DNA from: a virus | Direction: 5' to 3' (one strand) | Length of the DNA: 64,000 nt | Virus record (IMG/VR): IMGVR_UViG_3300020118_000164 | Coordinates: 29,368 to 93,367 of that record | Shown here: positions 16,903-20,847 of the stretch, piece by piece | How positions within the stretch are numbered: the stretch's first letter is position 1 | How the letters are laid out: every line of letters starts with the position of its first letter | Program-made: the position numbers and the translations under genes | The notes under the pieces: generated by a model | Told to the model about the DNA's origin: nothing | The model's input: the letters and a program-made list of their open reading frames with translations, nothing else | The model's database searches: none

Positions 16903-17340
16903 ATGCCTGAGCTGACCCCCGAGCAGCGCCTCTTCATCGTCCGCCGGCTCGCCTGTTTCGCCAGCCCTACCCAGGTAGCGGAGGCGGTCAAGGAGGAGTT
17001 CGGCATCGAGGTGGACCGGCGGCACGTCGGCAATTACAGTCTGCGCAACCCCAAGCTGAGCAAGGCGTACCGGGAGGAGGGTGAGGCCACCCGTAAGGAG
17101 TACATCGAGTCCGCCCGCGAGATCGGGATCTCTCACCAGACCTACAGGCTAGAGCAGCTAGGGGAGCTGTACCTGGAGGCGCGGAAGACGCGGAACCGTC
17201 CACTGGCCGTGCAGATCATCGAGACCGCGGCCAAGGAGACTGGCGGGGCCTATACCTCCCGCCGTGACGTGACCCTCACCGACCCGGACGAAGTGCTGGC
17301 GCGCATCCTGGGCGTATCGAAGGACAAGCTGCCGACGTGA
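16903..17340 (+). CDS. DUF2280-family protein, putative terminase small subunit
   Basis: LT.EQ.LFIV..LACF.SP.QVAEAVKEEFGI...YRL..L...AAKETGGAYT. Confidence 0.8.
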   Translation: MPELTPEQRLFIVRRLACFASPTQVAEAVKEEFGIEVDRRHVGNYSLRNPKLSKAYREEGEATRKEYIESAREIGISHQTYRLEQLGELYLEARKTRNRPLAVQIIETAAKETGGAYTSRRDVTLTDPDEVLARILGVSKDKLPT

Positions 17341-17440
17341 GCGCGTTGCGCTGGACAGGGCCGCGCGACGGAGCGGTCTGAGCCTCCCGCGACCGTTGCC
17401 CGGATGCTGATGGTTGCAGCCCTTGAGAGGTTGAGGACAG

Positions 17441-17559
17441 AACGATGAACCGTAGCGTGGCGAAGGTGTCGGTTACTTCTTGGGGAAGCGGAAGCGGGTC
17501 GGCTTCGGCCGGCAGCGCACGACTACCGGCTCCGCTGATTCCCGCCGCGGTCCATCGTT
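17441..17559 (+). ncRNA. Y RNA-like (Yrl) ncRNA, copy 1
   Basis: Terminal stem AACGATGAACCGTAGCG/CGCCGCGGTCCATCGTT; GGCGAAGG motif; inner stem GGTGTCGGT/ACCGGCTCC; TACTTC; cUUCGg hairpin; directly upstream of TROVE gene. Confidence 0.8.
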
Positions 17560-17653
17560 GTGCCCTTCGCGTGGCGAAGGTTGCGGGTACTTCTTTCGGT
17601 AAGAAACCGTCTTCGGACGGACTCCCGTAGCCGCCCATTCCCGGGTAGGGCAC
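17560..17653 (+). ncRNA. Y RNA-like (Yrl) ncRNA, copy 2
   Basis: Terminal stem GTGCCCT/AGGGCAC; GGCGAAGG; inner stem GGTTGCGGG/CCCGTAGCC; TACTTC; CCGTC-TTCG-GACGG hairpin. Confidence 0.8.
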
Positions 17654-17672
17654 TTCAAGTCTGGGGGCGCTC

Positions 17673-19013
17673 ATGCGCACGAACACCTCCGCCGTCCAAG
17701 TCGCTGTCACTCATGAGGGAGCCAAGGCCGGGCATCAGAAGCCGGTCGAGGCGCTTCTGCGTGCGGTCTCTACCTGCATGCTCTGGGAATCGACCTTCTA
17801 CGAGTCCGGTTCCGAGATCGCCAAGAACATCGAATCCCTCTGCGGCCAGGTGAGCGCGGAAGACTTGGCGGCTGTGGCCGTCGAGGCTCGCCAGCGGCTG
17901 AACCTCCGGCACGTCCCGCTGTTCCTGGTGCGCCAGCTCGCGAAGCTCCACCGCGGGCCGATCGTCGGTGACACCCTCGCGGCAGTCCTGCGCCGGCCGG
18001 ACGAAGCGACGGAGTTCCTCGCGCTCTGGTGGAGGGATGGGCGCGGAGAGACCGTCAAGCTCTCCGCCCAGGTCAAGCGCGGCCTCCGTCTCGCCTTCTC
18101 GGGATGGGATGAGTACCGGCTCGCCAAGTACGCCGGGGCCGGCGACAAGATAAAACTCCGCGACGCTCTTTTTCTGAGCCATGCCAAGCCGAAGGATGAC
18201 GAGCAGGCCGCGCTGTGGAAGCGGCTCATCTCTGGTGAGCTGACGCCGCCCGATACCTGGGAGGTCGCACTCTCTGCCGGCGCCGACAAGAAAGAAACAT
18301 GGGAACGCCTTCTTCGGGAGCGCAAGCTCGGCTATCAGGCGCTCCTGATGAACCTGCGGAACATGACCGATGCGGGAGCTGATCCGGCGCTCGTGCGGGA
18401 GGCGTTGCTCGACGGTCGCGGGAGTGAGCGGATGTTCCCGTACCGCTTCTTGGCCGCGTCGCGGGTTGCCCCGCAGTACGCTGACGCCCTGAGTGAAGCC
18501 ATGCTCAGTTCGCTCAGCGGTCATGAGAAGCTGCCGGGCGCCACCGTCCTGGTCGTGGACGTATCGGGATCGATGGAAAGCCCCCTCTCCGCCAAGAGCG
18601 CGATGCATCGCCTCGACGCGGCCGGCTGCCTTGCCGTGATCCTGCGCGAGGTCAGCGAGTCGCTGCGCGTGTTCTCGTTCAGCAACGCAGTCGTCGAGGT
18701 CGCCAACCATCGCGGATTGGCGCTGAGTCACGCGGTCACGGAGAGCCAGCGTCACGGCGGCACCGAGTTGCGCGCCGCGCTTGAGGCCGTGCGCAAGGCG
18801 ATCCCGAACGCGCATCGCGTCATCGTCATCACCGACGAGCAGTCGCAGGATGGCATCGCCCCGGCCTGGGCGCCGCACTCTTACCTAATCAACGTCGCGC
18901 CGTACAAGCCCGGACTCGAGACCTCCCAGGGCTGGACGCGCATCAACGGATGGTCAGACCGGGTCGTGGACTGGATTCTGATGGAGGAGGCGACCGCGCC
19001 CGATGGGCAGTGA
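17673..19013 (+). CDS. Ro60/Rsr-like TROVE + vWA domain RNA-binding protein
   Basis: LWE.TFYESG, RHVPL, RPDE..EFLA, DEY.LAKY, LRDALFLSHAKP, TWEVALS, ALLMNLRNM, FPYRFLAA; MIDAS DVSGSM and ITDEQ. Confidence 0.93.
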   Translation: MRTNTSAVQVAVTHEGAKAGHQKPVEALLRAVSTCMLWESTFYESGSEIAKNIESLCGQVSAEDLAAVAVEARQRLNLRHVPLFLVRQLAKLHRGPIVGDTLAAVLRRPDEATEFLALWWRDGRGETVKLSAQVKRGLRLAFSGWDEYRLAKYAGAGDKIKLRDALFLSHAKPKDDEQAALWKRLISGELTPPDTWEVALSAGADKKETWERLLRERKLGYQALLMNLRNMTDAGADPALVREALLDGRGSERMFPYRFLAASRVAPQYADALSEAMLSSLSGHEKLPGATVLVVDVSGSMESPLSAKSAMHRLDAAGCLAVILREVSESLRVFSFSNAVVEVANHRGLALSHAVTESQRHGGTELRAALEAVRKAIPNAHRVIVITDEQSQDGIAPAWAPHSYLINVAPYKPGLETSQGWTRINGWSDRVVDWILMEEATAPDGQ

Positions 19014-20847
19014 GTCAACCTCCGCCGCACCCGCTGACCGCCTAACCCTTGACCAGCTAGTCGCGGCCATCCGCCGTCTACCTCCCGGCCTGGAACAGGC
19101 GCGGGCGGTCGCGGCGTTCGCCAAGAGGTATGAGGGGCGGACAAGCGCCGGCCGAGATCCGGCGCAGCGCCGGAAGTATGCGGGCGATCCGTGGGCCTAC
19201 ATCGCGGACGTGTTCGGCTATCCAGCGACGCCTCAGCAGGAAGAGGCGCTCGCGCTCATGGAGGCGCATGACCGCGTCCTTTTGCCCTCCGCCAATGACC
19301 TCGGGAAGACCTGGCTTTTGGGAGAATACGCAGTTTACTACATGGACGCTGTTGGTGCGCAGCTCGATGAAGATACGGGCGGCGAGCAGGGCGCCCGCGT
19401 GCTCCTCCCCGGCCCGGATCACCCGACCATCCGTGCCACGATCTACAACAAAATGCTCCTGATGGCCGAGCGGGCAGAGGCCCGCGGCTTCAAGATGCCA
19501 GGCAGGCGGTCTCTCGATTCCGTGCTCTGGCGCGTGCGTCCGGAGTGGGAGGTCGAGGCGTTCTCCCCGCCGCGGCAAGTTGGCCAGGAGGTCGCCCATA
19601 CCGCGAGCGGCCGGCACCACAGGAACCAAATCGCGCTCATCGAGGAGGGGCAGGGCGTATCGGAGCGCGTCTGGAGAGCGGCCGAGGGCATGTGCGCCTC
19701 CCGCGGAAACAAGATCATCAGCTCGTTCAACCCCACAGAGGCGAGCGGCCCGACCTACCAGCGTTCCCGCCGGAACTATATCGTCATGCACTGGGATGCC
19801 TTCGAGCACCCGAATGTCGTGCAACGGAAGATCGTCATAGAGGGCGCCGTGGACTATCTGGTGACGGATGACCGGGTGAGGGAGTGCCGTGACCGCGGTC
19901 CTTATCCTGGCACACAGCCGGACGCGACCTACGGTGACTTCATTTACGCTGCCCCGACGGTTGAGGAGACGCGTGCCGGCCTCGTAGAGCGAGGCCCGCG
20001 AGAGGATGGCATCCTGGGCCATCCCGACGCGACGCCGCACGTCTGGAGGCCCACGGGGGCTTTCGAGGCCCAAGTCCGCGGGCGCTGGCCTAAGTCGTCG
20101 GACACCGGCCTGTTCAACCCTGGCGCATGGGATGCGGGTGTCGAGCGCTGGCTCTCTGGACAAGATCCGGTCATCCTCCCGGACCGTATCGGCGTGGACG
20201 CGGCCAGAGAGGGTGGCGACGACTGCTGCTACTGTCCGGCATGGGGAGAGACCTCGGCCGCGCTCCTCCGCGCCCATCACCAGGCGCAGAAGGATGGTGA
20301 CTCTCGGCTCCTGGAGGAACTCCGCATCTCGCGCCGAGTTCGCGTCGGGGAGATCCGCGTCGCTCCCAAGGGCGATGGGCCGCTCGTGGCAGAGGCCATC
20401 TTCAAGGTCTACCCATCCTCGCCCTGGGTAGTCGATGAGGGGAGCGTAGGCACCTCCGTCCTCGACCACGCCGCGAAGGTCTTAGGCGCGTCGGCCTCCG
20501 GCATCAGCTTCTCCGGCAAGCGTCCAGACCGCATCCCCGGCGAGCGGCTGGTCTACAACATGCGCGCCTCGCTCTACGTCCGCGCCGCGCTGCTCTTGGA
20601 TCTCGGCCTCGCCGATCCCCCGGATGATCCTCTCCTACGGGAAGAGGTGCTTGCCCACGAGATCGTCAAGTGGGAGGCCGTAACGGTCAAGGAGTCTCCC
20701 GGCGGCAAGAAAGAGACCAAGTATGCCGCCCGCGTCCTGGAAAAAGCCGAGGTCAAGAAGAAGATCGGCCGCTCCCCAGACCGGGCGGACGCGTTCGTGC
20801 TGGCGCTCGCTCCGGCGAAGGCTAAGGGTCGCGGGTTGATCTGGTGA
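19003..20847 (+). CDS. terL: Terminase large subunit
   Basis: Walker A SANDLGKT, Walker B LIEEGQG, nuclease IGVDAAREGGD and GRSPDRADA. Confidence 0.88.
   Translation: MGSESTSAAPADRLTLDQLVAAIRRLPPGLEQARAVAAFAKRYEGRTSAGRDPAQRRKYAGDPWAYIADVFGYPATPQQEEALALMEAHDRVLLPSANDLGKTWLLGEYAVYYMDAVGAQLDEDTGGEQGARVLLPGPDHPTIRATIYNKMLLMAERAEARGFKMPGRRSLDSVLWRVRPEWEVEAFSPPRQVGQEVAHTASGRHHRNQIALIEEGQGVSERVWRAAEGMCASRGNKIISSFNPTEASGPTYQRSRRNYIVMHWDAFEHPNVVQRKIVIEGAVDYLVTDDRVRECRDRGPYPGTQPDATYGDFIYAAPTVEETRAGLVERGPREDGILGHPDATPHVWRPTGAFEAQVRGRWPKSSDTGLFNPGAWDAGVERWLSGQDPVILPDRIGVDAAREGGDDCCYCPAWGETSAALLRAHHQAQKDGDSRLLEELRISRRVRVGEIRVAPKGDGPLVAEAIFKVYPSSPWVVDEGSVGTSVLDHAAKVLGASASGISFSGKRPDRIPGERLVYNMRASLYVRAALLLDLGLADPPDDPLLREEVLAHEIVKWEAVTVKESPGGKKETKYAARVLEKAEVKKKIGRSPDRADAFVLALAPAKAKGRGLIW

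Follow-up and report, generated by a model that had tools for sequence, protein, structure and literature searches.

The stretch of DNA considered here (the window, 64,000 nucleotides) comprises bases 29368-93367 of a phage genome of 93,367 bases in IMG/VR (IMGVR_UViG_3300020118_000164), which has direct terminal repeats, is rated complete, and has near-identical counterparts in several soil metagenomes. On the plus strand of the window, two abutting Y RNA-like (Yrl) units occupy 213 nt directly upstream of a gene encoding a Ro60-like protein. Conservation of Ro60-Y RNA particles extends from bacteria to humans, human Ro60 being an autoantigen in lupus and Sjogren syndrome, but what the particles do in bacteria and phages is not yet well understood. 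The RNA units and the Ro60 gene are listed below, together with scores against R1, a covariance model built from an alignment of 17 short units from 11 loci, and agreement with two related loci, L010 and L101, whose Ro60 proteins are 97% and 80% identical, respectively, to that of the window.

17441-17559, plus strand: Y RNA-like unit 1, 119 nt (R1 52.2 bits, E 3e-10; minimum free energy (MFE) fold equal to the family fold; 118/119 positions identical in L010; compensatory changes relative to L101)
17441-17457 with 17543-17559, plus strand: unit 1 terminal stem
17458-17466, plus strand: unit 1 handle UGGCGAAGG, with a bulged U and a GG that pairs with the CC of AUUCC (in 17534-17542)
17465-17473 with 17525-17533, plus strand: unit 1 inner stem
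17474-17479, plus strand: unit 1 UACUUC
17476-17488, plus strand: unit 1 hairpin 1
17494-17518, plus strand: unit 1 hairpin 2, UUCG-capped
17560-17653, plus strand: Y RNA-like unit 2, 94 nt (R1 59.2 bits, E 6e-12; fold z-score -3.1; 93/94 positions identical in L010)
17560-17571 with 17642-17653, plus strand: unit 2 terminal stem
17572-17580, plus strand: unit 2 handle
17579-17587 with 17624-17632, plus strand: unit 2 inner stem
17588-17593, plus strand: unit 2 UACUUC
17591-17605, plus strand: unit 2 hairpin 1
17607-17620, plus strand: unit 2 hairpin 2, UUCG-capped
17633-17641, plus strand: unit 2 3' loop and UUCC
17673-19013, plus strand: Ro60-like gene, 446 aa, with a TROVE HEAT-repeat region as well as a von Willebrand factor A (vWA) domain (Pfam TROVE and vWA families)

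Direct reading of the plus strand confirmed the two units where the original prediction, made from the sequence alone, had placed them; they adjoin with a spacer of 0 nt, and the end of unit 2 is separated from the ATG of the Ro60 gene by 19 nt, rather than by the 20 nt first reported. The shared strings described earlier are likewise present in both units, namely TGGCGAAGG (17458-17466 and 17572-17580), TACTTC (17474-17479 and 17588-17593), a cTTCGg-capped hairpin (within 17494-17518 and 17607-17620), and ATTCC (within 17534-17542 and 17633-17641). Both units follow a common plan consisting of a long terminal stem, the strand U-GG-C-G-A-A-G-G with its U bulged and its GG paired to the CC of a 3' AUUCC, an asymmetric internal loop (C-G-A-A-G opposite ..AUU), an inner stem of 8-9 bp, UACUUC, a three-way junction bearing hairpin 1 (which begins in CUUC) and a GC-rich hairpin 2 with a UUCG cap, and the return strands. 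The terminal stems pair in both units despite different letters (AACGAUG../..CAUCGUU in unit 1, GUGCCCU/AGGGCAC in unit 2), as do the inner stems (GGUGUCGG:CCGGCUCC in unit 1, GGUUGCGG:CCGUAGCC in unit 2), in which two positions are altered on both sides, as in the compensatory change between paralogs that had been claimed.

In a survey that found YrlA-like RNAs beside Ro60 in 254 bacteria and 22 phages, Chen et al. (2014) recognized Yrl RNAs by their location on the same strand within 4 kb of Ro60 and by the motif GNCGAAN0-1G near the 5' end (PMC4201824). The window units lie on the same strand as, and less than 4 kb from, the Ro60 gene, carry the motif near their 5' ends as GGCGAAGG (17459-17466 and 17573-17580), and pair their 5' and 3' ends into a stem with a bulged helix and covariation. 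The 8-nt motif GNCGAANG alone is uninformative in this GC-rich genome, as it is not enriched in the window (73 matches versus 59 expected).

Comparison with other phage loci demonstrates that the two units belong to a widespread family. In the MAFFT alignment of the 17 short units, RNAalifold recovered the terminal stem, the GG:CC pairs, and the inner stem, with double changes at 14 of the 16 pairs. When the whole phage genome was searched with R1, exactly two matches were obtained, corresponding to the two units, and no other at E<=1. Across 12 loci the model gave 40 matches, all on the strand of the TROVE gene and directly upstream of it. In the alignment of these 40 units, 94.1% of cells are paired (compared with 62.4% in shuffles and 45-55% in slid-partner controls) and 15 of the 16 pairs are altered on both sides, although the larger model-derived alignments (A2, A3) were fitted to R1 and their pair counts are somewhat inflated, a bias of which the MAFFT-based result is free. 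When IMG/VR was scanned for one handle form as an exact pattern, 80 loci were listed, among which R1 confirmed 118 units in 42 loci. At most of these 42 a TROVE gene directly adjoins the array in the same orientation; in seven, no TROVE gene lies within the fetched stretch, some of these being cases at the end of a locus or in a short locus. Altogether, approximately 150 R1 units beyond the window pair, nearly all adjoining and co-oriented with Ro60 homologs of other phage contigs, share one handle (bulged U, GG:CC, CGNAG, UACUUC, UUCC).

Amongst 111 non-redundant units of the IMG/VR set, neither the bulged U (111/111) nor the G of the CG step varies, each UACUUC position is kept in 106-111 units, and the UUCC positions are kept in 99-109. 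The leading G of the GG step (99 G, 11 A) and the C opposite it (99 C, 12 U) covary. The figures for the handle and UACUUC hold partly by construction, since the IMG/VR pattern selected one unit per locus on those letters; no such selection applied to the 3' UUCC or to the remaining units of an array. The original prediction had proposed that a covariance model of such units be scanned beside phage TROVE genes and had named lack of conservation there as grounds for rejection; the handle recurs next to TROVE genes in dozens of phage contigs, with strong covariation, and the prediction withstands this check. No unit in the 14 loci searched at the Rfam gathering threshold reached the YrlA cut-off, and the comparison provides a definition of a phage handle that Rfam does not currently capture, which may be of some use to RNA annotators. 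At more distant Ro60 loci, R1 found no match within the 2.5-kb flanks of the Ro60 genes of Ralstonia phage RsoM2USA, Rhizobium phage TM30, crAss001, Vibrio phage phiTY18, and HGTV-1, where the partner RNAs, if any, may be too divergent or lie outside these flanks. A blastn search of the RNA region against cultured phages yielded only short chance matches, because the RNAs are too divergent in sequence.

Closer relatives show that the units are under selection as RNAs. L010 contains the same two units, with 211/213 positions of the RNAs identical, next to a Ro60 coding sequence that is 90.6% identical to that of the window and in which 90 of the 109 substitutions fall at third codon positions. 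One of the two RNA changes (17545 C>T) converts a G:C into a G:U pair and is also seen in a separate soil contig; the second (17607 C>G) disrupts the pair that closes hairpin 2 of unit 2. Four soil DNA runs contained identical copies and one variant (again 17545 C>T), their cover being too fragmentary for population-level covariation. L101 again has two abutting units, whose terminal stem, inner stem, and hairpin 2 show double compensatory changes, and the 0-nt junction between the units is kept in the window, L010, and L101. In unit 2 of L101, hairpin 2 has a compensated stem with a CUA loop instead of UUCG; consequently, of the UUCG-capped hairpins that had been proposed to replace the T arm, the hairpin is a conserved feature but its cap is not.

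The absence of a tRNA mimic, another element of the original prediction, withstood several searches. Neither unit contains the T-arm pattern, and no T or D arm is present. Rfam returned nothing at the locus at the gathering threshold, and in the region 17300-17750 no tRNA or YrlA match was found even at E<=10, where only chance matches to Virus_CITE_1 and sR1 appeared. The suggested YrlA search (RF02553) of the whole genome gave a single match of 15.3 bits (gathering threshold 69), beside and partly over the two real tRNA genes of the phage, approximately 43 kb away. The lack of rtcB, first noted for the window, extends to the whole 93,367-base genome. In YrlA, a 'V' stem-loop and a conserved YUAY follow the inner stem (PMC4201824); the UUAC/GUAC and hairpin 1 of the window units correspond to YUAY and the V stem-loop, and hairpin 2 occupies the place of the T arm, acceptor-like stem (AS), and D arm. 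Second Y RNAs without a full tRNA domain have been described as YrlB and Yrn2 (PMC4201824). By description, Y RNAs of this type combine the Ro motif with a long hairpin that ends in a small pyrimidine-rich loop; the window units have a Ro motif and a long stem, but the apex of each is a three-way junction with two hairpins.

Minimal units of this kind are common next to phage Ro60 genes. Nearly every sampled locus has at least one, and tRNA-like units are missing from roughly a fifth of the loci, counts that are approximate because the T-arm pattern misses variant T loops (e.g., L005:2760-2894) and R1 fails to pick up some divergent units. Two- or three-unit arrays of the minimal type, in which no tRNA-like unit was detected, occur in L101, L104, L042, L035, L032, and L010, and several single-unit loci are also minimal-only. 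The relationship to tRNA-like Y RNAs is best seen in Xanthomonas phage MET23-P3, Brevundimonas phage Gurke, and Caulobacter phage CcrPW (L001-L003), in which arrays of 5 to ~9 units lie upstream of Ro60 and all units share GUGGYGNAG...UACUUC...UUCC. Many of these units bear a T arm, an acceptor-like hairpin, and a D arm, and two of the tRNA-like units match the Rfam YrlA model below threshold (52 and 37 bits versus a cut-off of 69), which links the handle family to YrlA. Each of the three arrays also contains one or two short units without the tRNA-like part that are very similar to those of the window (e.g., unit 1 of CcrPW, L003:720-803, likewise carries a UUCG-capped hairpin), and the Ro60 proteins show 46-52% identity to that of the window. 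These Xanthomonas and Caulobacter/Brevundimonas (jumbo) phage arrays add 2-7 tRNA-like units, whereas the window phage, L010, and L101 have none. No paper describing the mixed Y RNA arrays of the Caulobacter/Brevundimonas and Xanthomonas phages was found.

Several further observations were made on these arrays. They are unannotated (L001:1820-2425, Xanthomonas; L002:1060-1905, Brevundimonas; L003:720-1915, Caulobacter), each is preceded by a sigma-70-like promoter (TTGACA..), and the minimal unit comes first in both jumbo-phage arrays and second in the Xanthomonas phage array. In CcrPW, a small coding sequence (gp147) is annotated on the opposite strand within the array region. In Gurke (ON529850.1), a 'tRNA-Ser' is annotated at L002:1766-1840, directly upstream of Ro60, inside a Y RNA-like unit that runs from the handle GAUGGCGCAG..AUUCUUC through an anticodon-like hairpin, a T arm, a hairpin, and a D arm to the end ..GAUCCUCCCC. 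This 'tRNA-Ser' is probably a tRNA-like Y RNA module and not a tRNA; R1 gave the unit no score below E 1.

The protein encoded downstream of the units is a TROVE-vWA protein, as originally proposed (TROVE PF05731, 42 bits, cut-off 23; VWA_2, 32.4 bits, cut-off 27; Ro60 vWA family, 25.9 bits, slightly below the cut-off of 27.7), and matches phrog_850 ('RNA-binding protein', E 5e-41). Among solved structures, the nearest is that of Ro60 from Thermus phage phiLo (PDB 9KOP/9L5Y, including a Yrl2 complex), which matches over residues 12-435 (E 8e-33). The metal ion-dependent adhesion site is intact (DVSGS at 18558-18572, GGT, and ITDEQ), all three elements aligning with phiLo Ro60, and the full-length similarity to 9KOP suggests a closed HEAT-repeat ring with a central cavity. 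Homologs were found by tblastn in 96 cultured-phage records, the hosts or groups of which include Xanthomonas, Brevundimonas, Caulobacter, Ralstonia, Rhizobium, Microcystis, crAss-like phages, actinophages, and a halovirus.

Three further features adjoin the RNA units and the Ro60 gene:

16903-17340, plus strand: gene for a DUF2280 protein, upstream and first gene of the operon context (Pfam PF10045, E 1.1e-24; phrog_546, function unknown)
17654-17672, plus strand: 19-nt leader with a GGGGG Shine-Dalgarno-like run at 17663-17667 before the Ro60 start (direct reading; 19/19 positions identical in L010)
19003-20847, plus strand: large terminase gene, terL (phrog_2 terminase large subunit, E 3e-19)

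DUF2280 proteins are commonly interpreted as small terminase subunits (terS-like). The Ro60 gene thus lies between the DUF2280 gene and terL, a placement specific to the lineage of the window phage, and its end is overlapped by the terL ATG by 11 nt, for which reason the two genes are probably co-transcribed and translationally coupled. No tblastn match to TerL was found at E<=1e-5 among 50,697 cultured-phage records; the phage therefore belongs to a lineage without cultured relatives.

Taken as a whole, the 213-nt stretch likely encodes two Yrl RNAs that serve as dedicated partners of the phage's own Ro60. The RNAs would probably be made as part of the transcript of the DUF2280 (terS-like)-Ro60-terL operon and released from this precursor, as in Mycobacterium smegmatis, where YrlA and YrlB are processed from an rsr precursor (PMC4201824); alternatively, units 1 and 2 may stay joined as one two-handle RNA. 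Judging from homology and the Ro motif, the Ro60 ring is predicted to bind each handle. By analogy with the Rsr-Y RNA-PNPase assemblies of Deinococcus and Salmonella and with the phiLo complex formed in vitro, the RNA might then gate the ring, tether it to a host 3'-5' exoribonuclease, or both, and late in infection the turnover of structured RNA may be redirected or the host nuclease sequestered; the tethering step itself is a possibility that we regard as doubtful. Because the RNAs lack a tRNA mimic, they would not be expected to engage tRNA-modifying enzymes, RNase P, or the CCA-adding enzyme. A phage Ro ribonucleoprotein with a non-tRNA-like effector domain, the central idea of the original prediction, is supported by the Ro motifs, the neighboring Ro60 gene, the recurrence of the handle, and the absence of the T arm, AS, and D arm; the roles proposed for it, protecting phage RNAs or redirecting host RNA decay or defence, are hypothetical.

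The system is most like that of phiLo, in which two CGAA-containing Yrl RNAs are encoded upstream of phage Ro60 and binding was demonstrated by electrophoretic mobility shift assay and cryo-electron microscopy (PMC12135203). A phiLo Ro60-Yrl-host PNPase complex forms in vitro, and sequestration of PNPase as a counter-defence has been proposed (PMC12135203). Both phages thus encode a TROVE+vWA protein with two CGAA-containing Y RNA-like RNAs directly upstream; the phiLo Yrls are stem-bulge-stem RNAs for which no tRNA-like domain is reported (PMC12135203), and the window units likewise have no tRNA-like part. The phiLo Yrls are likened here by description, the bulged-U/UACUUC handle being defined from the window family and not from phiLo DNA. 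The window differs in that its protein is ~55 aa shorter, its units adjoin directly, within a packaging operon, and it comes from a soil phage. The bacterial Rsr-YrlA/YrlB systems (Salmonella, M. smegmatis; RF02553) share the motif, the YUAY-type sequence, the V-like stem-loop, the location on the same strand near Ro60, the presence of more than one Y RNA per locus, and, probably, co-transcription with the Ro60 gene (rsr); however, YrlA is defined by T, AS, and D arms that the window units lack, and the window phage has no rtcBA. The mechanistic model is the Rsr-Yrn1-PNPase particle of Deinococcus radiodurans (RYPER; work cited in PMC4201824), in which the Ro60 ring is bound by the Y RNA handle and PNPase is tethered at the opposite end. 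Yrn1 has a T-arm-like loop and large single-stranded loops, whereas the window module is small, and a contact with PNPase cannot be inferred from it.

In addition to the inflated pair counts of the model-derived alignments, there are several points that weigh against two independent small RNAs acting in this manner. The fold of the plus strand of unit 1 is no better than that of shuffled sequences (z -0.98), which is why unit 1 is supported by comparison and not by thermodynamics. In unit 2, the family-constrained fold (-41.9 kcal/mol) competes with an MFE fold of -43.6 kcal/mol, and an alternative local hairpin, CUUCGC/GCGAAG (17565-17582, plus strand), favored by 1.7 kcal/mol, would mask the Ro motif. 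A scan around the units found no promoter-like site and no credible terminator, the two "terminators" that were flagged being internal hairpins of unit 2. A look-up of sequencing runs that contain the sequence listed no RNA run. With respect to PNPase tethering, the effector module has short single-stranded segments, and the proposal is drawn purely from analogy. The CUUCGC/GCGAAG option exists in unit 2 only, in a stretch that is identical in L010 and L101, and it could be a switch or an accident.

Other explanations of the locus can be ranked against this reading. The two abutting units may form one bivalent RNA of ~213 nt that acts as a scaffold dimerizing two Ro60 rings, a plausible arrangement given the 0-nt junction conserved in all three loci and the folding of the units as separate, directly neighboring domains in a joint transcript, and one with a precedent in phiLo, where Yrl1 has two CGAA hairpins and forms 2:2 complexes and the Ro60-Yrl2 complex can dimerize (PMC12135203). 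Most other loci, however, have spacers of 5-100 nt between units, which suggests separate RNAs, and a bivalent RNA is judged unlikely. Similarly speculative, and in our estimation rather improbable as a whole, is a general picture in which the minimal Y RNA is the core Ro60 partner in phages and tRNA-like modules are optional cargo on the same handle, with the two handles in the lineage of the window phage forming one bivalent RNA within a two-ring particle that is free of tRNA mimicry, made late with the packaging enzymes, and encoded by a mobile cassette.

It is also conceivable, with a lower probability, that the units are a cis-acting leader of the Ro60 mRNA, such that Ro60 binds its own 5' untranslated region and autoregulates itself and the coupled terL at the level of translation or stability. 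The short distance from unit 2 to the ATG, the complete conservation of the leader in L010, the lack of a spacer between the units, and the lack of promoters or terminators around them would all suit a leader. However, the handle need not sit in the Ro60 leader, since other phages have such units downstream of the TROVE gene, or separated from it by hundreds of bases, in long arrays (L021, L040, L065, L090; up to nine units in CcrPW), and the M. smegmatis YrlA and YrlB are released from the rsr precursor (PMC4201824). Regulation in cis is compatible with the encoding of dedicated Yrl partners, being possible but not required.

A much less probable explanation is that the units are decaying YrlA or tRNA-like relics, or chance GC-rich hairpins, without present function. 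The most conserved blocks of YrlA (the T and D arms) are indeed missing and unit 1 folds no better than shuffles, but a relic would not be expected to show two substitutions in 213 nt next to a gene that has diverged by ~9%, mostly at synonymous positions (L010), together with compensatory changes relative to L101 and near-invariant handle positions that are all intact, in a family whose minimal units are present in nearly every sampled locus. A packaging signal or packaging RNA (pac site, pRNA-like), suggested by the location between the DUF2280 gene and terL and by the overlap of Ro60 with terL, is the least credible of all and was rejected, as the RNA family follows TROVE genes and not terminases, the two-unit cassette of L101 is ~8 kb from terL behind an Arc-like gene, and the units of other phages sit beside lysozyme, RusA, RNA ligase, or tRNA arrays.

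Dedicated Yrl partners of a phage Ro60 are a modest novelty, and the locus is a compact addition to a known kind. The novelty was overstated in the original prediction, given that a phage Ro60 with two upstream Yrl RNAs has been published (PMC12135203), YrlB and Yrn2 are known, and minimal-only arrays exist in other lineages; the current picture of Ro60 biology is unchanged. The locus is nevertheless about the smallest complete version of the system, with two short RNAs and a 446-aa protein in 1.6 kb, and, with no tRNA mimic, it lends itself to in vitro binding and structural studies of the bare handle.

The cassette behaves as a mobile accessory module, as its placement differs in L101 and L010 shares little beyond it. 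The stretch common to L010 and the window is limited to the segment from just before unit 1 through codon 46 of the downstream gene; in L010, the 534-aa open reading frame (ORF) after Ro60 matches the window terL over its first 46 codons only, with 80% identity (window 19003-19139 versus L010:4350-4487). The mosaic junction just inside terL implies that the Y RNA-Ro60 cassette was exchanged along with the start of terL.

Small ORFs are also present around the RNA units. Two ORFs of 61 aa, 17445-17630 (plus strand) and 17473-17658 (minus strand), overlap the units and are almost certainly spurious, because the conservation in this region is of the RNA type. Between the DUF2280 (terS-like) region and unit 1, L010 (2304-2776) and L101 (2818-3303, minus strand) have one or two small ORFs, that of L101 having an Arc-like ribbon-helix-helix C-terminus, and the stop of the last small ORF is a TGA within the terminal stem of unit 1 (AACGATGA). 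In the window (17341-17448, plus strand), only the last ~26 codons remain (..TERSEPPATVARMLMVAALERLRTER*), in frame straight after the DUF2280 stop and without a usable start, and this remnant looks like the product of a deletion between short GAGACGCTRAGGA-like repeats. In L035 (9364-9936, plus strand), an RNA ligase gene (phrog_14301, E 2e-76) lies directly upstream of three minimal units and Ro60, which links the cassette to RNA repair at that locus.

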